From a virus, in the IMG/VR virus record IMGVR_UViG_3300037063_000214: a stretch of 24,942 nucleotides of DNA, one strand, 5' to 3'. A program made the translations under genes and the position numbers. Numbering within the stretch: position 1 is the stretch's first letter; every line of letters starts with the position of its first letter. Shown here in pieces: positions 9,559 to 23,965 of this stretch. The notes under the pieces are model-generated. The model saw only the letters and a program-made list of their open reading frames with translations, was not told the DNA's origin and did not search any database.

Positions 9559-10219
9559 ATGATTATCGAAATTAGAGCGGCTGAAGGCGGACAGGACGCA
9601 AAATTACTGGTCGAAGATCAAATGACCATCTACGCGAGGTTGGCGATACGGAGGGGTCTTTGAGTTTGATGTTACCGAACAACGCCCAGGTATAGCTATC
9701 CTGCGCATTACAGGGGCTACAGCGCCTCAAGTCTTCGCTAACGAGGCAGGAGGTCACCGTTTTCAGAGAATTCCTCCCACGGAGCGTAGCGGTAGAGTTC
9801 AAACCAGTACAATTACTGTGGCTGTTTTTGATGAACCGGAAGTTGCTGCTTTTGCCGTATCCCCAAATGATTTGGCATGGGAGACAATGCGCAGCGGGGG
9901 TAAGGGCGGTCAAAACGCCAATAAACTGGAAACAAAAATACGCTTAAAACATAAACCTACAGGATTAGTCGTGGTTTGCGAATCAGAACGTAGCCAAAAA
10001 AGAAATAAAGACACGGCCTTAGCTGTCCTTACAGCACGTTTGTACGCTGCTGATAAGGATAAAAAAGCTGAAGCTGCTACTACGGATAGGCGACAACAAA
10101 TAGGAACGGGACAACGAGGAGATAAACGCCGTACAATACGAGAAAAAGATGGAAAAGTCGTAGACCATATCACCGGTCAAAAATGGCGTTATTCTGATTA
10201 TGTAAAAGGCATTTGGTAA
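9559..10219 (+). CDS. Class-I release-factor homologue lacking domain 1, of the RF-H/PrfH type. The GGQ motif is present. Translation requires a +1 frameshift at CTT-TGA (9658-9663). Frame 1 covers 9559-9660 and frame 2 covers 9662-10219.
   Basis: Frame 1 reads MIIEIRAAEGGQDAKLLVEDQMTIYARLAIRRGL and then TGA. The +1 frame continues EFDVTEQRPG...GGHRFQRIPPTERSGRVQTSTITVAV...SGGKGGQNANKLETKIRLKHKPTGLVVVCESERSQKRNKDTALAVLTARL...DHITGQKW. Both parts align colinearly with RF1 domains 2-4. There is no start codon in the second frame between its upstream stop at 9623-9625 and the shift site. A GGAGGGG SD-like element sits just before CTT TGA G, as in prfB. Confidence 0.75.
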
Positions 10220-10222
10220 AAA

Positions 10223-10834
10223 ATGGAACAATATCCACATATCGAAGGCAGTACAAAGGCTCCTATAGGAGAACCGTGCATCGCTTTTTATAAGTACGAT
10301 GGTAGTAATCTGCGCTTCGAATGGAGCCCTAAAAAAGGCTGGCATAAGTTTGGCACCAGAAAAGAACTTTTTGACGCTCGCCATCCTTTGTGGTCTCAAG
10401 CCCTTCCCTTGTTTTTAGAGTTTGGAGATGAGATTGTAAAACGAGTGAAAGCATCGGATTGGCGATTGAAAGGTATCCAACGAATTACTGTTTTTTGTGA
10501 ATTCTTTGGACCTAGCAGTTTTGCCGGAATTCATGATGAAAAAGAGCCTAAAGAATTGCGTTTGATCGATGTATACCTTTTCAAAAAAGGTATGATGCCA
10601 GCGAAGCAATTTGTAGAAATTTTTGGAGATATGCCCCAGGCAGCACAGGTAATTTATCAGGGAAATTTGACTAAGCAATTCATAGATGATGTGCGCTTTG
10701 GGGCTTATTCTGTGAATGAGGGCGTGGTCGCTAAGGGCGCTGATTTTCGGGTAAAAATAAAAACTGCTGCTTACTTCAAAAAATTGAATGAACGGCTCCC
10801 AGAGTTAGCGAATGCCTTTGATTGTGAGTATTAG
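10223..10834 (+). CDS. Minimal ATP-dependent RNA ligase of the Rnl2 family. Adenylyltransferase core only, 203 aa.
   Basis: Motif I KYDGSN (KxxGxN). Motif III ITVFCEFFGPSSFAG (compare Rnl2 VFGEFAGPG). Motif IV EGVVAK. Motif V RVKIKT. It starts 4 nt after the release-factor stop. Confidence 0.75.
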   Translation: MEQYPHIEGSTKAPIGEPCIAFYKYDGSNLRFEWSPKKGWHKFGTRKELFDARHPLWSQALPLFLEFGDEIVKRVKASDWRLKGIQRITVFCEFFGPSSFAGIHDEKEPKELRLIDVYLFKKGMMPAKQFVEIFGDMPQAAQVIYQGNLTKQFIDDVRFGAYSVNEGVVAKGADFRVKIKTAAYFKKLNERLPELANAFDCEY

Positions 10835-11211: not shown

Positions 11212-11290
11212 GCCAGTGTAGCATAGTCCGGCCTAATGCGCTTCGCTCATAACGAAGAGATCGGTGGTTCAAATCCACCCGCTGGTACCA
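11212..11290 (+). tRNA. tRNA-Met (elongator type), or tRNA-Ile2 if lysidinylated. Anticodon CAT. CCA is encoded.
   Basis: Acceptor gccagtg/cgctggt with two G-U pairs. D arm gcat/atgc. Anticodon stem cttcg/cgaag with loop ctCATaa. T arm ggtgg-ttcaaat-ccacc. ACCA. Confidence 0.7.
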
Positions 11291-11349: not shown

Positions 11350-12477
11350 ATGCTGAGAACTTTTCAATGTCGGTTGTATCCAAACGCGACGCAGAGACAC
11401 GCGCTGGAGTTCGTCTTGCGTGACAACGCGGAGACGTACAACGCGGCTCTTGCAGAGCGCCGAGATGCATGGAAGTTGGAGCGCAAGGCGATCACCTATC
11501 GAATGCAACAGGACGAACTAACAGAACTACGCCGTGATGAACAATTTGCAAGAGTCGCCTGCGACATTCAACGTGATCCCTTGAGAAGGGTTGACCGAGC
11601 ATTCCAAGCGTTCTTTCGGCGTTGTAAAGCAGGCCAGAAGCCAGGCTTTCCTCGTTTTCGCTCTCATCTGCGCTACGACTCTTTTGGATTCAGTCTCCCA
11701 GTCGTGAATAGTGAACGTCTGAGGATTCCGAATGTGGGGCAGATCAAACTGCGCGGAGGCCGCAGCATTGCAGGTAAGGCGAAGTGTTGCACGGTCAAGC
11801 GAGACGGCAACCGTTGGACGGCTTCAGTCGTGTGCGACATTGGTCCGGCACCAGGGAAGCGTATGGTAACAAATGCTGTCGGAATAGATATGGGCCTGAC
11901 GACGCTCGCCACGCTGTCGGACGGGACGGAGATTGAGAACCCACGCTGGACCCGACAGCACGAAGACCTGATTGCAGCCGCGAATCGCCTACTGGCACGG
12001 AAGCATAAACGTTCGAAGAACCGCATCCGGGCGCGGGAAGCACTGCATCGCGCTCACCAGCGGGCCGCGAATGCCCGTCGCAACTATCTGCATCACGTTT
12101 CCAAATGGCTTGTGGGTAATTACGACCTGATCGCCCACGAAGCCTTAAACATTAAAGGCATGGCGCAAGGACATTTCGCCAAGTCGATTATGGATGCCGC
12201 ATGGAGCATTCTGCTGTCGCAAGTACGCTACAAGGCTGAGAGTGCCGGAGTGTACGCGATAGCGGTGAATCCACGCGGCACGTCACAAATGTGTTCGGGT
12301 TGCGGTCGAAACGTTCCGAAGAAACTGGCGCAGCGGGTGCATAGCTGTCCGCACTGCGGTCTAGTTCTGGGGCGTGACCACAATGCCGGACGGAACATTT
12401 TAGCGTTGGGGATCAACGCTGCGGGCGTAAGCCTTCAAAATCTACACACGACTCGGGTTAGGGAGTTATGTATATAA
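11350..12477 (+). CDS. tnpB: TnpB (IS200/IS605 family OrfB), an RNA-guided RuvC-like nuclease.
   Basis: N-terminal MLRTFQCRLYPNATQRHALE. RuvC-I GIDMGL. RuvC-II LIAHEALNIKGM. C-terminal zinc finger CSGCG...CPHCG followed by RDHNAGRNI. It is markedly more GC-rich than the flanking DNA. Confidence 0.9.
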   Translation: MLRTFQCRLYPNATQRHALEFVLRDNAETYNAALAERRDAWKLERKAITYRMQQDELTELRRDEQFARVACDIQRDPLRRVDRAFQAFFRRCKAGQKPGFPRFRSHLRYDSFGFSLPVVNSERLRIPNVGQIKLRGGRSIAGKAKCCTVKRDGNRWTASVVCDIGPAPGKRMVTNAVGIDMGLTTLATLSDGTEIENPRWTRQHEDLIAAANRLLARKHKRSKNRIRAREALHRAHQRAANARRNYLHHVSKWLVGNYDLIAHEALNIKGMAQGHFAKSIMDAAWSILLSQVRYKAESAGVYAIAVNPRGTSQMCSGCGRNVPKKLAQRVHSCPHCGLVLGRDHNAGRNILALGINAAGVSLQNLHTTRVRELCI

Positions 12478-12743: not shown

Positions 12744-12821
12744 GCGGGGATTAAGCTACGGTGCGCTTGGATGTCTCATAAGCATTCCTCTTAGGTGGTT
12801 CAACTCCACCCTCCGCTACCA
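12744..12821 (+). pseudogene. Degenerate tRNA-like element with a CAT anticodon arm. It is possibly a remnant or duplicate of tRNA-Met.
   Basis: D arm aagc/gctt. Anticodon stem gatgt/gcatt with loop ctCATaa. T arm ggtgg-ttcaact-ccacc. It ends in tACCA, but the acceptor stem pairs poorly. Confidence 0.35.
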
Positions 12822-13997: not shown

Positions 13998-16900
13998 TTG
14001 TCAGACTTCAATCCCCCAATTATTGACCCCCTGGAAGTACCAGTCAAGCCTAAAAGAAAGCGTAAGCTTGCTTCCCCTCCATCCAAGGTAAAGAAACCAA
14101 AAGTAGCTCGGGATCTTCGTTCAGTTTTCCTTGAAAAATTAAAAGAAATTTCAGTTGAAAAAATCAAGAAACCTTGGATGGCAGAAAAAGTTTTTCGATT
14201 AATTAATACTACATCTGAGTTAGAAACTTGGGTAGAAAAAGTCTTAACTGATAAGTCTCAATTCCACACTCAATTTAAGCATACATGCCCAGTCTTGGCG
14301 GTTGATACAGAAACCACTAGCTTAGATACTCGTATCTTTTCTACTCTTCAACAACTACCTAGCGGGGAATCAGAACTTCAATATGAAGTGAAAGTTGAAA
14401 TTGCAGGAGTATGTCTGTCTGTAAATGGTATCGAAGGTGTGTACATTCCCATCAACCATGAAAGCGGAAGCAATATTCCACGAGCTGATGCGGCTCGTAT
14501 TTTACAACGATTATTTGATAACTGCCATTTGATTTTCTACAATGGTAAGTTTGATCGTGAAGTGTTACGTATTACTTTGGGTATCAATTTCAGACCCTAT
14601 CCATTTTTTGAAGATGTTCAAGTACTGCAATATATCAATGACCCCAAAGCAGATTTAGGGAAGTCTGGTACTTGGGCTGGGGATAGCGGCACATTAAAAA
14701 AATTGTCAGAAAGTAAGCTGGGAATTGAACAGATTGAAATTAAAGAAATTGCCAAAGTACGAGCGCATGTTTGGAATCCGCTTACTCAAAAAAATTCCTT
14801 GAAGATGCAAGTTGTACCCTTTACTTGGGTACCTCCAGAAATAGCTTTGTGGTACGCCGCAGCTGACGCCATATGTACCTGGTTACTCTGGGATAAGATG
14901 AAAGATTTGGCTCGTAGTAGAGACCTAGTTCATCATATTGACCATGAGTTAGTAGATTCTTTATCTTATGTGGAGCGGCAAAGATTTTTGATAGATGTGG
15001 ATCGTCAACGCCGTACCACTCGCTGGCACACAAGAAAAACTCAAGAATTACGAGATGAACTAGGTCAGATGGCGAAAGATGCTGGTTGGGTTAGCCCCAC
15101 CGCAGATGATGAAGACAAAGGCGTATTTAATCCTAGTTCTACAAAGCAATTGGGACCTTTGCTATTCAAGTTGATGGGTTTTAAACCTTATCGGATGACG
15201 GATAAAAACCAAGCATCTACTGACAAAGAAACGCTTCAAGAGTTGGTAAAAGATAACCCGGATAATGAATTTCTTAAGACGCTTCAAGAATATAGAGAGC
15301 TTGCGGCTCTACATCCCGGCAATTTACGTTATGATACCAAAGATAATAGTGCTCGGTTATATTTGAAACAGAATGTAGTAGCTGGTGGAAGATTATCAGG
15401 TTCTGGTGGTAAGTTTGAAAAAGATGGAGGCTTGCAATGGAATCCTCAGGGCGTAAAAAAACTGGAAGAGGATGATTTTTGGCGTGTGTACGGTAATGTA
15501 TTGGAGCCCGATTCTGTTCCTGAGTATGATATTGAAGCGTATACTGAAGAGGATTTACACCCGTCCTGCTTTCAAGAAGATGGAGATAAACGAGAGAAAG
15601 CCCCAGGGATCATAAAAAATCACATAGGATTGTACCAAGATTACGCCATTTGTCTTGTGCCTAAATGTACATCTTGCGCTGATAAATTCGGTATTCTTAT
15701 ACCAGATACTTCTTTAGACGCGAATCAGGTAGTTAACCTGCGTGTGCTATTCGTAGCATCACCCGGTTGGACCTTCTTTTCTATCGATTATCAAAATATC
15801 GAAGTTCGTACAGCGGCTAATTTATCGAAAGAGCCTGAATTGGAAAACATCTTCCTCTTAGGTGATGGAGATCATCACGCCCTTACCGCATCTAAAGTTT
15901 TCCCTGAATATAATGACCCTAAAAGTAAAATGTATAGGTCTAAGTCTCTTCGTGCCATTGCAAAAATTATTAACTTCGCTCTCCAATATGGCGGCACTTC
16001 TCACGCTATTTACAAAAATATGGTGAAGAATGATCCGACCATCACTAAGGAAAAAGCGGAAGAGATGGTTACGAAATATTGGGCTGGCGTTCCTAAATTT
16101 AAAGAATGGTGCGAAGGAAGACAAGCACGGGCGCGGGATGCATTTGTTAGTGAGACAGCTACGGGGCGTGTTATCAACTTTAAATCTGCTATGGAAGCTG
16201 AACATCTACATGTTCCCACCAGAGATGAAAGAAGCAGGTTGAGTCAATACTATGAGTGGAACAAAGAAGCCAAGAAAGCTAAAGCGGATCAAAACTCCGA
16301 TAGAGAGATGAAGTACCGTAAGGCAGCGGATAATTTATTTAAGAACCTAGATACAGGAGTACGTAACGCCATAGAATACAATAAATTCTTGGGGTATATT
16401 CAACGGGTGGCTGTTAATTGCCCCGTACAAGGATTATCTGGGGATTTCATGCGCATCGCAATTAACCGTATAAAAAAGTGGGTGGAGAAAGACCCGCAAA
16501 TTCAAAGGGTATTTCGTTTTCACGGGTCTGTACATGATGAGATTGATATCAGTATTAAAAATGAATATGTGCCCTTTATCTTACCTCGTCTTACCCGATT
16601 AATGAAGTTACGTAAATATCATAAAAAGATGGATTGGAATGTTCCTATTGAGTGTGATGCTGAATATGGGCATAGCTGGGATGTAGATTATAATGTTACA
16701 GACAAAAAATTTCCAGCGGCTTACACCCATATCCCGGGCTGGGAGTCTTATGTACCCTCAGATTTTGATATGAAGACTGTAAAGAATCTTTATCAGGCTT
16801 TTATATCGGGGGATGATGTTAGAAAAGAAAAAGCCAAGAATTGGATTACTGAAATATTGCATTCAAAAGTGCAACAATCAGTGAAGACTTTATTTGAGTC

Positions 16901-17198
16901 TAAGGATCCAGTAAAGATTAAAAACCAACTTATCGCCGTACTACAGTTACATGAATATTGGATGATTGATTGGACGCCAGATGAGGATGAAGCTAAACTT
17001 GAGACCCTAGAGCGGTACGAACAAAGAATGGGATTTTCACCTGACGATAGAGACAAAAGTTGTCCGGAGTTTGGTTATATGGGGGCTATTCCACTTTCTG
17101 CCCCTGTGATTCGCCCTGATGTACATACGCTAACTTGTGAATCAGAATCTTCTTCTGAGCAGGAACTAGTATTGGCAAATGCTTACGGAGCACCTTAA
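13998..17198 (+). CDS. Family-A (PolA-type) DNA polymerase with a 3'-5' exonuclease domain and large insertions. It has no 5'-3' exonuclease domain.
   Basis: Exo I LAVDTETTSLD and Exo III YAAADA. Pol motif A DYQNIEVRTAA. Motif B RSKSLRAIAKIINFALQYGG. Motif C VHDEID. The first in-frame start is TTG at 13998. The next ATG is at 14178. Confidence 0.9.
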   Translation: MSDFNPPIIDPLEVPVKPKRKRKLASPPSKVKKPKVARDLRSVFLEKLKEISVEKIKKPWMAEKVFRLINTTSELETWVEKVLTDKSQFHTQFKHTCPVLAVDTETTSLDTRIFSTLQQLPSGESELQYEVKVEIAGVCLSVNGIEGVYIPINHESGSNIPRADAARILQRLFDNCHLIFYNGKFDREVLRITLGINFRPYPFFEDVQVLQYINDPKADLGKSGTWAGDSGTLKKLSESKLGIEQIEIKEIAKVRAHVWNPLTQKNSLKMQVVPFTWVPPEIALWYAAADAICTWLLWDKMKDLARSRDLVHHIDHELVDSLSYVERQRFLIDVDRQRRTTRWHTRKTQELRDELGQMAKDAGWVSPTADDEDKGVFNPSSTKQLGPLLFKLMGFKPYRMTDKNQASTDKETLQELVKDNPDNEFLKTLQEYRELAALHPGNLRYDTKDNSARLYLKQNVVAGGRLSGSGGKFEKDGGLQWNPQGVKKLEEDDFWRVYGNVLEPDSVPEYDIEAYTEEDLHPSCFQEDGDKREKAPGIIKNHIGLYQDYAICLVPKCTSCADKFGILIPDTSLDANQVVNLRVLFVASPGWTFFSIDYQNIEVRTAANLSKEPELENIFLLGDGDHHALTASKVFPEYNDPKSKMYRSKSLRAIAKIINFALQYGGTSHAIYKNMVKNDPTITKEKAEEMVTKYWAGVPKFKEWCEGRQARARDAFVSETATGRVINFKSAMEAEHLHVPTRDERSRLSQYYEWNKEAKKAKADQNSDREMKYRKAADNLFKNLDTGVRNAIEYNKFLGYIQRVAVNCPVQGLSGDFMRIAINRIKKWVEKDPQIQRVFRFHGSVHDEIDISIKNEYVPFILPRLTRLMKLRKYHKKMDWNVPIECDAEYGHSWDVDYNVTDKKFPAAYTHIPGWESYVPSDFDMKTVKNLYQAFISGDDVRKEKAKNWITEILHSKVQQSVKTLFESKDPVKIKNQLIAVLQLHEYWMIDWTPDEDEAKLETLERYEQRMGFSPDDRDKSCPEFGYMGAIPLSAPVIRPDVHTLTCESESSSEQELVLANAYGAP

Positions 17199-17201
17199 TA
17201 T

Positions 17202-17810
17202 ATGAGAATTTTGGTAGCTTGTGAGTATTCCGGGGTTGTACGAGAGGCATTCAAAGCATTGGGTCATGATGCTTGGAGTTGTGATATTTTGCCTACGGAA
17301 ATACCGGGGCAACATTACGAATGCCCAGTAGAGGAAGTATTGAATCTCGGATGGGATTTGATGATAGCGCATCCTCCGTGTACATACTTGTGTAGCAGCG
17401 GGTTACATTGGAATAAGCGTATACCAGGGCGAGCAGAAAAAACAGAAGAAGCCTTGAAGTTTGTCCAATTGCTAATGAACGCTCCTATTGAAAAAATAGC
17501 GTTAGAGAATCCTATCGGTTGTATCTCTTCCCGAATTAGAAAACCAGATCAAGTGATTCAACCATGGCAATACGGTCACCCGGAGTCTAAACAAACAGCG
17601 TTATGGCTTAAAAATTTATCACCTCTTCAGCCTACTAACATATTGGAACCTCCAGCTTATCAAAAGAATGGTAAACCTCAGTGGAACAATCAAACACCGA
17701 CTGGTCAAAATAAGTTAGGACCATCACCCACCCGCGGTCTGGAGCGCAGCCGTACATACACAGGAATAGGAACAGCTATGGCTTTGCAATGGGGATCAGA
17801 TGGCAGATGA
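17202..17810 (+). CDS. Minimal C5-cytosine-methyltransferase-like protein of 202 aa. No target-recognition domain is evident.
   Basis: Motif-I-like ILVACEYSGVV. PC motif AHPPCTYLCSSG, compare GPPCQxFSxAG. ENV-like ALENPIG. Confidence 0.5.
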   Translation: MRILVACEYSGVVREAFKALGHDAWSCDILPTEIPGQHYECPVEEVLNLGWDLMIAHPPCTYLCSSGLHWNKRIPGRAEKTEEALKFVQLLMNAPIEKIALENPIGCISSRIRKPDQVIQPWQYGHPESKQTALWLKNLSPLQPTNILEPPAYQKNGKPQWNNQTPTGQNKLGPSPTRGLERSRTYTGIGTAMALQWGSDGR

Positions 17811-18594
17811 AACTAAAAAACAGTGTCCTCAATGTAATGGACAAATTGATTTTTTTGGGTCATGTAGAAAATGCGGTAGGCAGTGGTCTGAAGATTTAGA
17901 GTTGGGGGAGAAAGCTTTTGGTTTACCTGAAGGTGAACAGTATAAGTCTGTCGTTAAAAAAATAGGCACACACATTCCTCGTAAGAATCGTTTTACCAAA
18001 TCAAAAGGAGCGCTTGCTGGTAAAGATTTTAAAACTTTTGCACCTGAAGTACCGCCAAAATATCAAAATTGGCAGATTAACGCTGATTATGATGATGTTA
18101 CAGAGATCGTAAAAAAACGAGCTTTGATGCGGTTGGATTCCCGTAAACTTTACTCCGCTTTGGGGTTATCTATAAGAGCTTCCGACTGCCAAAAAGCTAC
18201 TCTTTCATCTTTATCTCGAATGTGGGAATTTCTGGATGAAGAAGAGAAAAAAATCCTTTCCCCTACAATGGAGCGTCTTAAGATTACTCTAGGTGAAATT
18301 CAAAAAGTATGCGAGAAAAAAATCATCGAAACATCTGAAATGGAAAAAGCTCTAGAAAAAGCTCGAATGTCTGCTCGTAAAGCAAGAATTCGTATTACAG
18401 CTGATGAACAAAAAGCTCAAATAGCCGCTAAACAAATTATCCCCGGGGAAGATACTGAAGGTTTGAGTGACCCAGAACCGCAGTTTATTTCACCATCCGC
18501 ATTACTTGAGCAAGCTAAAGAAAAACTCATCGCCTTAGCTAAAGAGAAAAATCTCAAAAAAGGGCATATCAAGCAAGATGAATCAGAAGAATAA
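17800..18594 (+). CDS. Hypothetical protein with an N-terminal zinc ribbon (CPQCNG...CRKCG) and a charged, coiled-coil-like C-terminus.
   Basis: Clean ORF. It overlaps the upstream gene by 11 nt. Confidence 0.6.
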   Translation: MADETKKQCPQCNGQIDFFGSCRKCGRQWSEDLELGEKAFGLPEGEQYKSVVKKIGTHIPRKNRFTKSKGALAGKDFKTFAPEVPPKYQNWQINADYDDVTEIVKKRALMRLDSRKLYSALGLSIRASDCQKATLSSLSRMWEFLDEEEKKILSPTMERLKITLGEIQKVCEKKIIETSEMEKALEKARMSARKARIRITADEQKAQIAAKQIIPGEDTEGLSDPEPQFISPSALLEQAKEKLIALAKEKNLKKGHIKQDESEE

Positions 18595-20572
18595 ATTATC
18601 CAAGGACTGGTGGCTAGCTCAACGATGGGATAAGTTAAAACTTGACCCCAATCAACAAATGCCAGATAAATGGTCAGAAGGTAGTGGGTTAAAATTAAGG
18701 TTTTTATGTGAGTGCGGTCGTATATCATTTACATCATTTGGCAGCGCTATAAAATCTACGAGTTGCGGGAAGTGTACATTCAAATCTAAAGAATATTGGC
18801 TTTCTCAAAAATGGGGCAAAGTTAAAATTGATCCTACGCAATTACTACCCAATGAGTGGGGACCCAGCAGCGGTAGAAAAATTATATATTTATGTGACTG
18901 CGGAAAAACTATTAAAGCAAATATGTGCAGGACTCTACAATCTTGCGGAAAATGCTCATTTCTTCCCAAGGAACATTGGCTAAGTTTGAAATATGGAGAA
19001 TTAAGTTTGATTTCTGACCAAGAATTACCCGATGAATGGGGGCCTAACTCTAATTATAGATTTGAATATTTATGCTCCTGCGGCAAAACTACAAAAACAA
19101 TGTTTGAAAATGTAAGCACTGGACATTCAGTGTCTTGCGGTAAATGCACAGCAAAACCTTTATCTTGGTGGCTGGAGCAAAAATGGGGGAAATTAAGGAT
19201 GGATTCAAGCCAAGAATTACTTGGACAAGCAGCCCCAAAAACAAATATAAAATTATGGTTTTTATGCGATTGTGGCAATAAAACACATGCTCTCATTTCC
19301 AATGTAACTACGGGGCGTACAAAATCGTGTGATAAGTGTAATTATAAGCCTAAAGAGTATTGGTTAGCACAACGATGGGATAAATTAATAATTGACCCAA
19401 ATCAAATACTTCCAGATGAGTGGGGACTACAATCTGAAATTAAAGTAAGGTGTATTTGTGACTGTGGGACTATTAGAAATTTTATTTTTTATTATATTAA
19501 TAACGGAACTACTAATTCCTGCGGTCAGTGTTCTTGGATGAGTAAAGAGCACTGGCTAAAACAAAAATGGGGTAAATTAGTGATTGATATAAATCAAAAA
19601 CTATTAGATAACTGGGGTTCTTCTGTAGACTATTTACTGAAATTTAATTGCGATTGTGGGGGCAATATAATTTTACCTTTTGGTAGAGTAAATAGAGGTA
19701 GTACTAAATCTTGTGGGTGCCTTCGAATAGGTCAAAATGAATTTTCCGCTGAAAATGAAATTAGAAAATTTGTAATGTCATTAGCATCGGACACATTTTC
19801 TACATCTTATAAAATCCCAAATTCTCGTAAAACATACGATGTTTACGTTCCTTCAAAAAAATTAGCTATAGAATTTCATGGTCTTATCTGGCATGGAGAA
19901 AAATTTTCAACAAAGGGGAGTAAAAAAAATGATTTTGATAAATATATTCTCAGCAGGCAGAGAGGTGATAGATTAATACAGATTTATGCGGATGAATGGA
20001 AAAATAAACAATCAATAATAAAAAACATGATTGAAAATATACTATCTCCCCTTAAAGGTAGAAGAATTTCCCCGAAATATACGGTAGAAAATATTACTTC
20101 AATGGTAACTAGGGATTTTCTTGACCGAAGTCATTACCTTGGAGCCGCTTCTGGGTGTCTTACCGTTATAGCTAAACATCATGATCAAATAGTAGGAGTA
20201 TGGGTCTTTATGAAGCGGGAAGAAGGTACTGTGTTATGGCATAGAGCCTGCTGGGATCATCGATATAAAACTTGGAACCCGCATGAGAAAGCTTTAAATA
20301 TATCAATACCTTTATTAAAAGCTATGGGATTTACTCGTATTATCACTTTTTCTGATAATAGATTTCATACGGGAAATCTATATGAAAAGTTAGGGTTTGT
20401 TTTTGAAAAAAATTTAGATCCTGAATACAGTTATACAAATGGTAATAGCAGAGTGTCCAAATACACAATGAGAGTAGAAGCGGGGCGTAACGAAAAACTT
20501 GAAGCTGAAGCCAAGGGCTGGTACAGGATTTGGGATAGCGGGAAAAAGAGGTACAGTTTATCTCTGGAATAA
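18578..20572 (+). CDS. 664-aa protein with six tandem zinc-ribbon repeats of roughly 60 aa, a Vsr/DUF559-like PD-(D/E)xK endonuclease motif, and an unrecognised C-terminal domain.
   Basis: Each repeat follows the pattern K(E/D)(Y/H)WL.Q(K/R)WGKL..D..Q.LPDEWG...FLCDCG...SCGKC. Vsr-like YDVYVPSKKLAIEFHGLIWHGEKF ... RQRGDRLIQIYADEW. Confidence 0.75.
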   Translation: MNQKNKLSKDWWLAQRWDKLKLDPNQQMPDKWSEGSGLKLRFLCECGRISFTSFGSAIKSTSCGKCTFKSKEYWLSQKWGKVKIDPTQLLPNEWGPSSGRKIIYLCDCGKTIKANMCRTLQSCGKCSFLPKEHWLSLKYGELSLISDQELPDEWGPNSNYRFEYLCSCGKTTKTMFENVSTGHSVSCGKCTAKPLSWWLEQKWGKLRMDSSQELLGQAAPKTNIKLWFLCDCGNKTHALISNVTTGRTKSCDKCNYKPKEYWLAQRWDKLIIDPNQILPDEWGLQSEIKVRCICDCGTIRNFIFYYINNGTTNSCGQCSWMSKEHWLKQKWGKLVIDINQKLLDNWGSSVDYLLKFNCDCGGNIILPFGRVNRGSTKSCGCLRIGQNEFSAENEIRKFVMSLASDTFSTSYKIPNSRKTYDVYVPSKKLAIEFHGLIWHGEKFSTKGSKKNDFDKYILSRQRGDRLIQIYADEWKNKQSIIKNMIENILSPLKGRRISPKYTVENITSMVTRDFLDRSHYLGAASGCLTVIAKHHDQIVGVWVFMKREEGTVLWHRACWDHRYKTWNPHEKALNISIPLLKAMGFTRIITFSDNRFHTGNLYEKLGFVFEKNLDPEYSYTNGNSRVSKYTMRVEAGRNEKLEAEAKGWYRIWDSGKKRYSLSLE

Positions 20573-20606
20573 AGCTATCTTTCAGTTATATTTATAGAGA
20601 AATTTT

Positions 20607-23243
20607 ATGGCGGATGAGAAAAAAGAATCAAAAAGACAGCGTAACGGAAACGCTACAGTCAAAAAAACAACTGAAACTCGCAAAGTAGCGAAAGTCGGAA
20701 AGCAAGAATACGCCAGCGCCGGTAGATATACTACCTTAAGTTCTGATGGACGGACTATTACTGATGATGTAGCATATCGTAACAAACTCCGATCTTTTCG
20801 TGGCTTGGCCGATAGTTTATTGGGAGATGACCCAACCATTCAAACCGGCAAAACCGCAGGAGGTATGTTTGGTGGGGATAGTGGAGTTGGTTATGCCGAC
20901 ATTGCAGACTCAAATAACATCGGGTATTACTCATATGAATTCCCTGTTGATGCGCTTGAGCTTCCCGCGTCTAGAGCTGAAGAACTTCGATTCTATAGAT
21001 TAGCTTATGATCGTGACCCTATTGTAGGGCGAGCAATTGATTTACACACTGAACTACCTCTCTCCAAAATGGAATTAAGTAAACCCAAATGTTCATCAGA
21101 AGAATATGCAGATTTTGTATTTGATGAATTTCAGCGTTTTGTGGGTAAGACAAAACTATTCCAAGTACTTATTGATTTGGTTCGTGAATATTGGACAATT
21201 GGTGAAGCATTTTTGTTCATTGAAAAGCTTGGCAATATAGAACCCTGCAAAGAAGCTCAAAAACTAATGGAGAAAGATGATAAAGGGGATGGAACAGAAC
21301 CTGGAAAAGAATCCGAATTCCACGGTCCTTTGGGCGGTACATCCGATCGTATTTTAGAGTATTTACAACCAGAAAAAACATCTGCCTGGGTGAATAAGAA
21401 AAGTCTTATATTAGATGAACTTAAAAATGCAGGTATTAAGTTTGATTTTTGGGAAGATAGTAAAAAAGTTGCCCGTGAAATAGAGTCAAAGAAAGCTGCT
21501 CTTAACGCTAAAACCCGCAAAATCGCTAAAGTAGCAGGAGTTCCAGCTGTCACTTTGGCAAAAATGATTATAGCGGCGGACACCCTGCACCAATTAAATA
21601 AAAACTCCAAACAATCACTAGAGGCTAATGAAAAACTGGCTAAACTTTTAAGTAGAATTGACGCAGATGAAAGTTTAAACGCCCCCCTTCAAATTACAGC
21701 AGAAATGTCCAAGGTTGCAGTACCCCCAGCCCCGGCTGCTCCGGGGGTTCCAGCAGGAGATGCGGGCGCTGGGACGCCCCCAGGGGCTGATACAGGGGTT
21801 CCTACAGACCCAGCAGCACCCGGCGCACCCGGAACTCCAGGCACTGACCCGGGCGCTCCTTTGGGAGACCCCGGTTTAGGGGATATCGCTGGGGCAGATG
21901 AAGGTATGGGCGGCGGTATGCCTCCCATGGGTGGTGGAGGCGGGGGAGGCGGTATGGGTATTCCCGGTGAAATGGCCGGTGAGGCACAAAACGCTATTGC
22001 AGCCGGTGTTTCTATTACCGCGCAACGAGAACTGATGGAAATGAAACATCTTCTTCGTTTACTGGAGAAGAAGAAAGAATTGTTAGAGGATTTAAAAGAA
22101 ATTCGAGAGAAGAAACGCGAAGAATTAGAGCTTTTCTCTCATGTGACCAACAAGGATTATGATGGTCCAGCTCGTTGTCAGATTCTACCCCCAGAACAAA
22201 TGGAAATAGTAAACGAGGGGCAGATGGAAGACGGTCCTACGATTTATTACAAACCACCAGAGGCACAAAAACAGTCTTATTTGGAAGATCCCGATGTACC
22301 ATCGGATGTGAAAGAGAAAATCCAAACTGAAGGTAAGATCCCACTAAATCAAGATCCTATGAAGGGAAGTTATGTAATTCACTTCGCCCGTAAAAAGAGT
22401 GGATATGAACTTCACGGGCGATCTATTTTACAACGCTGCATTCGTACGGTTATTTATCGAGAAAAATTAAGACAGGTACAAAGTACTTTAGCTTCTCGTA
22501 ACATGACGCCTAAAACCATGGTAATTGCTCCTGGTATTCCAATATCGGAAGTAATGGCTTTGCGTGCTCATATTGATGAAGCGAAGGCAGACCCAGATTA
22601 TAGCGTAGTCTTGAACTATGAAGCCCGCTGGGATGAAATTGGTTCTGAAGGACGTTTGCTTGTGCTTGATGGGGAATATCAACATACAAACTCTGACCTA
22701 GCTATTGGTTTGGGGTTATCGCCAGAAATTCTTATCGGTGAGGGTATGTACAGTGGAAATAAAGTACAACTGGAAATCATGAATATCTCTTATCTACAAT
22801 TCCGTGATTTGCTCACTACGATCATTGAAGATAATATTTTTAAACCAATTGCAATGGAGAAAGGTTTTTATGAAATGGATAAATATGGGCGTCCTCGTTG
22901 GATTTATCCTAAAGTTGAATTCTCCCGTATGGCGTTAAGAGATAGCGGCGACCTCTACGATATGCTTTTTAATCTTTATGCAAAAGGAAGTCTGCCTGTA
23001 GACATTATTTACGAATTTTTGTCTATCGATCCAGAAGATGCTACTCGTAAATTAGAAGATAATTTGTTTACTGTAAAGGATAGTAAATTCAACGAAATGC
23101 TTTCGAATCTATACAGTAGCGTTGGTGAATGGATGATGGCCAATACAGACTTAGGTAAGAAACTTACCAAGGGATTACAACTCAGTGAAGTTGATCACGC
23201 TGAGGATGATAGTGAAATAGAAGGATCTGGTGAGGGAGTATGA
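20607..23243 (+). CDS. Large 878-aa hypothetical protein with an internal Pro/Gly/Ala-rich low-complexity linker. It is possibly virion-associated.
   Basis: Long clean ORF. The low-complexity region [55 protein letters not shown]...[15 protein letters not shown] is encoded in a GC-rich stretch at about 21720-21960. The C-terminus is acidic. Confidence 0.75.
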
Positions 23244-23965
23244 TGGATGAAGGCTTATCAAACGCTCCGAAACAAACCCGAAAAAAGCGCGTGGTTCGGA
23301 ACGGTCATCCGTCGAATAAGCTTGTCCTGAGTGCCTTTTCAGAGACAAATAACCGAGCCTTCCCAGAGATTCTCCAATTGTACGTGGACGCTAAAAGTGT
23401 CGTTGCTGACGTGACCTATGGTAAGGGCGTCTTTTGGAAGAATATTCCGAAGGATAAATACGTCTTGAAGGCGACCGATATTCGGGATGGCATTGATTGC
23501 CGGAAGTTGCCTTACAAGGACGGCGAGATAGATTGTGTTGTGTTTGATCCACCCTACATGCATACTCCTGGAGGTACGGCTCACTCGTCCCACACTCCAT
23601 TTGAGAGTCACTATAGGAATAATGGCACTGGTAACGGTACGGCCAGCAAATACCATGAAGCCGTCCTTGACCTGTATAAAGAGGGCGGCAGAGAAGCGTA
23701 TCGAGTTTTACGGAAACAGGGAGTCTTGATCGTAAAATGCCAAGATGAGGTATGCGCCAACCGCCAACGGTTTACGCATGTTGAAATCATGCAAATGTAC
23801 AAAGAACTCGGATTCGTAGCGGAAGATTTGTTTGTAATAGTCCGCAACAATCGCCCGGGAGTTAGCCGCATGGTTCGCCAAGTTCACGCCCGTAAGAACC
23901 ATTCCTATTTTTTGGTCTTCTGGAAAAACGGATCCGGTACAGGAAGATGGGAACCCCCAAAGTGA
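23240..23965 (+). CDS. DNA amino-methyltransferase, N6-adenine or N4-cytosine.
   Basis: Motif I DVTYGKG. Catalytic motif IV VVFDPPY. ATGA overlaps the upstream stop. Confidence 0.75.

Follow-up and report, generated by a model that had tools for sequence, protein, structure and literature searches.

A probable Hef-type homing endonuclease gene with a six-repeat zinc-finger array in the unk264-portal spacer of an uncultured large phage

The gene and its place between unk264 and the portal gene

The window analysed here is a stretch of 24,942 nucleotides (nt) from a large uncultured phage (IMG/VR record IMGVR_UViG_3300037063_000214), and it contains, at 18578..20572 on the + strand, a complete open reading frame (ORF) with an ATG start encoding a protein of 664 amino acids (aa), to which all residue numbers refer; related loci are labelled L and homologous proteins P, each with a number. 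Based on the ORF call, on homology to Hef and on the comparison of related loci, here it is proposed, with a probability of about 0.75, that the ORF is a free-standing gene for a homing endonuclease of the Hef type (EDxHD/Vsr-like), set precisely in the spacer between two conserved genes, unk264 and the portal protein gene. Hef of the T4-like phage U5, after which the type is called, was reportedly described as a homing endonuclease by Sandegren, Nord & Sjoberg in 2005. The upstream neighbour, unk264 (17800..18594, + strand), has an N-terminal CxxC...CxxC and no assigned function, and directly adjoins the portal gene in relatives; the downstream neighbour is the portal protein gene (20607..23243, + strand). 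The ORF start overlaps the final 17 nt of unk264, and its stop lies 34 nt 5' of the portal ATG. No second copy of the gene was found in the window. The ORF has a GC content of 35%, the lowest among the local genes (neighbours 38-48%), which gives weak support to a possible foreign origin.

Using the portal protein as anchor, 20 viral and 38 metagenomic loci were collected. Four loci from other samples (L023, L025, L026 and L035), nearly identical copies of this phage, also have the gene, and all the other loci that cover the junction (about 30, with portal proteins 55-84% identical) have the order pol, unk264, portal, without a Hef-like gene; in L002, the spacer between unk264 and portal is only 43 nt. 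The two closest relatives, L027 and L001, hold in this spacer a 230-aa ORF of the endonuclease VII/HNH type (PF02945, E 1e-21 and 8e-23; phrog_2633) with an N-terminal Cys-rich region (L027:1254-1946; L001:8466-9158, equivalent to window 18595-20606). A hidden Markov model (HMM) built from the six repeats described below gave no significant match to the zinc-finger region of these two ORFs, though both nucleases touch phrog_374. The spacer is thus a three-state site, with a Hef-type gene, an endonuclease VII-type gene or nothing, and it is an insertion hotspot common to two unrelated nuclease families. By analogy, it appears to behave like the sites of free-standing homing endonuclease genes in T4-like phages. 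An earlier note on this DNA had listed a homing-type or free-standing endonuclease among its candidates and had expected a patchy distribution among related phages; the loci do show such a distribution, and the candidate is borne out by the homology of the C-terminal module to U5 Hef.

The borders of the gene carry a 7-nt direct repeat, GAATAAA, whose left copy (18589..18595, + strand) includes the unk264 stop codon and whose right copy (20567..20573, + strand) includes the ORF's own stop. Downstream of the right copy, the sequence AGCT..ATCT..TTTATAGAGAA..ATG is equivalent to the spacer between unk264 and portal in relatives lacking the gene, and uniting both copies gives a predicted precise-excision junction, ...CAGAAGAATAAAGCTATCTTTCAG..., that resembles the spacer of relatives such as L003. 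The repeat could be chance or insertion microhomology, and little weight was given to it; in the viral contigs, neither the empty site expected from precise excision nor the spacer preceding the portal gene was found by exact-pattern searches.

Zinc-finger array and nuclease domain

The first part of the protein is formed by six consecutive repeats of 61-64 aa (aa 9-386) with a mean pairwise identity of 40%, whose pairs have Smith-Waterman scores of 114-166 against 23.9 +/- 4.4 (maximum 39) for shuffled repeats. Each repeat has four Cys, as a CxC and, 16-19 residues on, a CxxC, the final repeat having the variant CxC...CGC. Repeat 1, a putative divergent DUF4379 (aa 9-70; 18602..18787; Cys 44, 46, 63, 66), is followed on the same + strand by repeats 2 (aa 71-131; 18788..18970; Cys 106, 108, 123, 126), 3 (aa 132-194; 18971..19159; Cys 166, 168, 187, 190), 4 (aa 195-258; 19160..19351; Cys 230, 232, 251, 254), 5 (aa 259-322; 19352..19543; Cys 294, 296, 315, 318) and 6 (aa 323-386; 19544..19735; Cys 358, 360, 379, 381). 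Each Cys column is kept in at least 90% of 54 homologues or in all of them, and all 24 predicted zinc ligands are present in the 664-aa protein. Tandem Repeats Finder detected no array at the DNA level, and the repeats can be recognized only in the protein; therefore, they correspond to old duplications rather than to recent slippage.

The Pfam model for DUF4379 (PF14311) had no match to the whole protein at E <= 1, nor to single repeats at E <= 10. With the HMM from the six repeats, each of 120 homologues shows 2-8 units, and in the homologue P0052 the units (10-68, 69-128, 129-188 and 190-245) overlap a Pfam match to PF14311 (best stretch 19-65; whole-protein E 1.2e-15). On these profile matches, the repeats are assigned as divergent DUF4379 (PF14311) treble-clef zinc fingers, and six of them stand at the upper end of the family's range of 2-8. 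The earlier note had described six related repeats over residues 1 to about 370 and had taken them for zinc ribbons; their number and their zinc-binding type, given by the Cys pairs, agree with the present results, whereas the array runs to aa 386 and Pfam describes DUF4379 as a 'probable treble clef zinc finger'. The repeat thus belongs to a known family, but a zinc-finger one and not a tail-fibre or carbohydrate-binding repeat.

Over 177 units from close relatives, a constant scaffold is kept (K.YWL.Q.WG.L.LDP.Q.LP.EW...F.C.CG...V..G...SCG.C), and hypervariable stretches precede the first Cys pair and separate the two pairs. These stretches, the architecture and the varying copy number are the reasons to propose that the six fingers, each with one zinc ion held by CxC...CxxC, would serve as a modular DNA-binding array reading a long, rare site. 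The AlphaFold model of aa 1-392 has a pLDDT of 92 and a pTM of 0.59, and this pTM leaves the placement of the repeat modules relative to one another poorly fixed. No significant match came from a fold search of the array; the only solved look-alike of the repeats, weakly matched by both profile and fold search, is the kinetoplastid mitoribosomal protein mS66. Fold matches of the array to influenza polymerase, virginiamycin lyase and a polo-box were dismissed, with TM below 0.15 and only mS66 agreeing with the sequence signal. With 2-8 copies, a constant scaffold and hypervariable segments, tandem DUF4379 fingers look like a natural modular DNA-recognition system and, if a recognition code exists, their arrays would be engineerable in the way of zinc-finger or TALE arrays.

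A long zinc-finger array could in principle target host sequence, and phages do encode nucleases that degrade host DNA, which raises the idea of an anti-defence or host-takeover nuclease acting on host DNA or on a host defence locus. We regard this as very improbable, since recognition of a long site fits rare cutting and not bulk degradation, every relative that has been annotated or studied by experiment is a homing endonuclease, and a PADLOC scan showed no similarity to known defence or anti-defence families. The earlier note's candidate of an anti-defence nuclease hence found no support, and a defence-system reading was dropped because the scan was empty.

The array is followed by the EDxHD/Vsr-like nuclease domain (aa ~388-492; 19739..20053, + strand), with 'YDVYVPSKKLAIEFHGLIWHG' at aa 420-440 and 'IQIYADEW' at aa 467-474, two motifs that the earlier note had already quoted. 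The motif 'FHGLIWHG' in this protein resembles 'THGCFWH' in Vsr. Direct matches to Vsr are weak (TIGR00632, E 0.21 and 11.9 bits against a cut-off of 97.85; PF03852, E 0.031 and 14.6 bits against a cut-off of 27) and, being far below threshold, indicate a superfamily relative of Vsr rather than a Vsr orthologue; the protein is no mismatch-repair enzyme and has another domain context. The family profile (56 members), in its positions 324-414, matches the homing endonuclease I-Bth0305I (PDB 3R3P_A) at E 6.5e-8, and E170, D196, N208, H213 and D222 of I-Bth0305I align with E394, D421, H434, H439 and D452. Residues D421, E432, H439, D472 and E473 are invariant among the 54 family sequences and D452 is at least 90% conserved, position 394 is E in 30 of the 54, and position 434 is H or N in 51, being H, N, Q or T across all of them. 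As judged from these alignments, the domain is an EDxHD/Vsr-like homing endonuclease domain with a predicted full catalytic set, in agreement with the Vsr-like core derived from the PD-(D/E)xK fold that the earlier note had suggested. By homology to Vsr and I-Bth0305I, it would cut DNA with Mg2+ on D421 and D452, H439 acting as the general base. For aa 383-664, the AlphaFold model has a pLDDT of 95.

I-Bth0305I is the EDxHD prototype (PDB 3R3P; PMC3239194), with a homologous catalytic domain in which all five E-D-x-H-D positions align. It differs from this protein in being intron-encoded, in having NUMOD/HTH DNA-binding motifs instead of zinc fingers, in lacking a GNAT domain and in working as a dimer on a pseudo-palindromic site; moreover, its 'x' residue is Asn, whereas here it is His, as in Vsr. 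The authors of that work placed the Hef-type enzymes in the EDxHD family (PMC3239194; Taylor 2011).

No HNH-type Pfam domain was found in the 664-aa protein and its nuclease core is Vsr-like; therefore, the label 'HNH endonuclease' of phrog_559 and phrog_374 is a misnomer. For phrog_559, the VSR signature alone has been reported (PMC11878797). The misnomer is also spreading into phage annotations.

The Mom-like C-terminal domain

The last part of the protein, about 170 aa that the earlier note had left unrecognised, is a Mom-like domain of the GNAT fold (aa ~498-664; 20069..20569, + strand) with conserved H519/Y520, R556, D593-N594-R595 and Y602, and with Glu570 at the position of Ser124 in Mom. 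Its best Foldseek match is Mom of phage Mu (PDB 8BV8), and the modelled structure of the domain is of the GNAT fold, nearest to Mom. The Pfam model of Mom (PF25680) gives 13.5 bits for the whole protein and 18.6 for the domain alone, under its cut-off of 27.1, which four homologues (P0052, P0058, P0068 and P0060) exceed with 30.9-32.7 bits.

Mom transfers glycine from Gly-tRNA(Gly) to the N6 of DNA adenine (PMC13219725); its R111, S124 and R151 are essential, its H58, Y59, D149 and Y159 are important, and the S124A mutant is catalytically dead (PMC13219725). Residues H58/Y59, R111, D149/R151 and Y159 of Mom align with H519/Y520, R556, D593/R595 and Y602, which are invariant or nearly so across the family, and the complete set H-Y-R-S-D-R-Y is kept in 30 of 54 family members, P0052 being one relative that has it. 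In the catalytic trio, R556 and R595 are kept and the Ser is replaced by Glu570, a position that can be E, S, G, Q, A or K in the clade of this protein and that has stayed Ser in 30 of 54 more distant members; the clade also has 'PH-x-K', with invariant Pro-His before this position, in place of 'IWSK'. Because the Ser124 essential in Mom is Glu here, acyl transfer has probably been lost in the 664-aa protein. The Mom-like domain seems still to be under constraint and, judging from its residue conservation, would most plausibly be a nucleic-acid-binding part of the nuclease module. In contrast to Mom of phage Mu, with which it shares the other pocket residues (PDB 8BV8; PMC13219725), the domain sits within a nuclease and is not stand-alone, and there is no com-like regulator.

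The same fusion of Mom-like and nuclease domains has been interpreted otherwise in jumbo phages similar to this large phage, where the Mom-like domain would acylate the phage adenines and a finger-targeted nuclease of the restriction endonuclease (REase) fold would destroy unmodified DNA of the host or of superinfecting phages, as a modification-restriction unit that benefits the phage (Iyer et al. 2021, PMC7824862). They count five of these enzymes in PA5oct, encoded by the very genes that are annotated as Hef-like homing endonucleases and match this protein directly. The window comes from a jumbo-phage-like lineage, Mom is the top structural match, and the pocket shows little or no variation at D-N-R, Y, R and H-Y, the full set being kept in 30 of 54 members as stated above. 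Iyer et al. (PMC7824862) predict an active adenine acylation that protects phage DNA; this protein lacks the equivalent of the essential Ser124, and the position is unconstrained in its clade. In U5 Hef, a reported homing endonuclease, the pocket is even more degenerate (D593 to G, Y520 to L). Furthermore, 8-11 paralogues per genome in other phages, intron-encoded members (PMC11878797, PMC12350094) and a spacer occupied in relatives by an unrelated nuclease gene are what selfish homing endonuclease genes (HEGs) typically show, unlike a protective system, and the PADLOC scan had no match. The modification-restriction reading thus fits this protein poorly and is considered unlikely for it; it may hold for the family members with an intact pocket.

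A different proposal, which we hold to be rather unlikely, is that the Mom-like GNAT domain, found in thousands of Hef-type endonucleases, would be no relic and would take an active part in homing. Where the H-Y-R-S-D-R-Y set is complete, the domain may acylate adenines at or near the target through an aminoacyl-tRNA, so that the carrier genome would be protected from its own nuclease, and in the clade of the present protein the pocket may have taken on a new role, such as that of a base-flipping adenine reader for site recognition or for discrimination between modified and unmodified DNA. If true, this would be a homing endonuclease with built-in self-protection. The near-universal Mom-like domain has two conflicting published readings, as part of a homing endonuclease or of a modification-restriction unit, that are testable now that the tRNA-dependent chemistry of Mom is known, and the clade of this protein, with no catalytic Ser and with the other checked pocket residues kept, is a natural control for them.

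Within the Mom-like domain, at window positions 20262-20306 (nt 1685-1729 of the ORF, aa 562-577), the gene has 6 substitutions in 45 nt relative to L025, L026 and L035, among them R562Q, T565A, S576A and I577L, which flank the helix of Glu570. The 2.7-3.9 kb flanks of the same three loci differ from the window at 1-5 sites. From the sequence comparison, this cluster resembles a short patch of gene conversion or an effect of local selection.

Such a cluster could also mean relaxed constraint, as could be expected in a decaying or domesticated former homing endonuclease that has become fixed, with no empty sites left, and is drifting inactive or now serves as a DNA-binding regulator close to the portal (late) genes. 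Every known copy of the phage (the window, L023, L025, L026 and L035) carries the gene, and one residue of the Mom site has already been lost, both of which agree with decay. The ORF, however, is intact over its 664 aa, its product has kept all 24 zinc ligands and the five EDxHD residues together with the other residues that are invariant in the family, both AlphaFold models are confident, and the clustered changes are conservative and go towards the clade consensus, more as in a conversion patch. As all functional residues but the Mom Ser are intact, decay or domestication is not favoured and is judged quite unlikely.

Relationship to Hef, proposed mechanism and other genes of the window

When the whole protein and single repeats were scanned directly with Pfam and NCBIfam, no match rose above threshold (Mom, Zn_Tnp_IS91, vsr and DUF1922 stayed below it); therefore, the domains were assigned from profiles, relatives and structure. 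In the PDB, a search with the single sequence had isobutyryl-CoA mutase as its sole match (E 0.24), which was dismissed as spurious. The protein matches phrog_559 (4e-42) and phrog_3339, 'homing endonuclease' (8e-39), and it has relatives in 320 phage records, mostly annotated as Hef-like or homing endonuclease, including Campylobacter myophages with 8-11 family copies per genome. The nuclease and Mom-like module is found in 14,194 cluster representatives at E <= 1e-3 and in 7,804 at E <= 1e-10.

The family profile aligns with U5 Hef over 269 columns (HHalign probability 99.8%, E 7e-29), covering aa 378-661 of this protein and 246-543 of Hef, and tblastn of the protein against U5 Hef gives E 5e-8. 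The U5 Hef gene (AY262133) lies between nrdA and nrdB, and the name Hef stands for 'homing endonuclease-like function'. Hef is described as a unique endonuclease with cleavage in the nrdB region (PMC2988022). Like Hef and the Hef-like enzymes of T4-like, ViI-like and Campylobacter phages, the protein has the homologous nuclease and the Mom-like C-terminal module, and like Hef, its gene is free-standing, wedged between conserved genes and patchy among relatives. The Hef-like versions of Campylobacter phages and of PA5oct also have N-terminal zinc-finger repeats. U5 Hef differs in having no DUF4379 in its first 245 residues, where this protein has six repeats, in keeping the Ser of the Mom pocket while having lost the Asp and one Tyr, where this protein keeps those and has Glu for Ser, and in an identity of only ~23-29%. 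As the DUF4379 repeats are absent from Hef, the conserved core consists of the nuclease and Mom-like module, and the DNA-binding part in front of it can be exchanged.

Members of phrog_559 have been found encoded in introns of terminase genes (PMC11878797), and HEGs made of ~60-aa CapR/DUF4379-like domains and an EDxHD domain occur in phage group II introns (PMC12350094), where the authors consider the repeats as modular DNA-binding domains and mention thousands of unannotated relatives. These CapR/DUF4379/DUF723-like and EDxHD/Vsr HEGs of phage group I/II introns (PMC12350094) resemble the present protein in having several ~60-aa finger-like domains followed by a nuclease; they are intron-encoded, with three to five repeats, a ~100-aa nuclease C-terminus and no Mom-like domain described, whereas the present gene is free-standing and its product has six repeats and the extra GNAT domain. 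The novelty implied by the earlier note does not hold, as the whole architecture has already been published (Taylor 2011; Iyer 2021; NAR 2025 group II intron paper), and the protein is an ordinary, well-preserved member of a very large family. The gain is mainly one of annotation, by which a 664-aa 'hypothetical protein' from a large uncultured phage becomes a probable Hef-type homing endonuclease with its three domains assigned. More modest points are the six-finger array, the three-state hotspot and the loss of the Mom Ser in a clade that keeps the other checked pocket residues.

As proposed here, the zinc-finger array would bind its long site and the nuclease would cut in or near the unk264-portal region of phages lacking the gene, and the cleavage site in those genomes likely lies within the portal gene or unk264. 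In a co-infection, the broken genome would be repaired from that of the carrier, and the gene with its flanks would be copied in, which is consistent with the presence and absence pattern of the loci; the founding member Hef is reported to home by break repair in co-infection. The carrier genome would be immune by having its own site disrupted or diverged. The least certain step is that of the Mom-like GNAT domain, which, with Ser124 changed to Glu, would probably carry out no acyl transfer and would more likely bind or position nucleic acid.

Several points weigh against homing as proposed. A plain homing model leaves the strong conservation of the Mom-like pocket unexplained, and the same fusion has another published reading, as a modification-restriction unit (PMC7824862). 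DUF4379 fingers have no structural precedent for DNA binding, and the fold search of the C-terminal half left the Vsr-like fold unconfirmed, with GNAT matches to the Mom-like domain filling both lists. At the insertion site, a base-exact empty allele or co-conversion tracts could not be identified because the junction alignments are too diverged (57-61% column identity). Finally, cleavage, target site and homing of the 664-aa protein are predictions from its sequence.

The window contains 9 tRNA genes and related contigs reach up to 230-460 kb, so the phage is considered as jumbo-phage-like in lineage; megablast of 11 kb of the window found no DNA-level match in cultured phages. Two methyltransferase-like genes lie on either side of the region, phrog_757 (17202-17810) and phrog_24333 (23240-23965), both confined, like the endonuclease gene, to the phage lineage of the window. 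In the relatives, pol is directly followed by unk264, and no match to the methyltransferase-like gene was found after the portal gene. The portal protein has a long Pro/Gly/Ala-rich low-complexity insert (window 21900-22000, aa ~390-470) whose length differs among relatives, and the tblastn matches of the portal are broken around residues 305-450 in several loci.

Among the nine tRNA genes of the window, four consecutive tRNA-Leu genes are located at 2006-2513, and two tRNA-Met(CAT) genes (11212-11290 and 12744-12817) flank a transposase ORF (11350-12477; phrog_506, E 6e-94). An ORF with an RF-1 domain (9818-10219), similar to peptide chain release factors, adjoins an RNA-ligase-like ORF (10223-10834), the latter by a weak match, and both are accessory genes of the translation and RNA-repair type, as in very large phages. 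The DNA polymerase gene is uninterrupted in the window (13998-17198), and in several relatives it has gaps of ~600-770 bp at two positions, around residue 530 and around residue 598 (L001:4789-5417; L008/L009:6240-7000; L012/L013/L047:5498-6090, in L012/L013 coordinates; L017-L019/L054:7083-7855, in L017-L019 coordinates), which may be introns, inteins or more nuclease-gene insertions.

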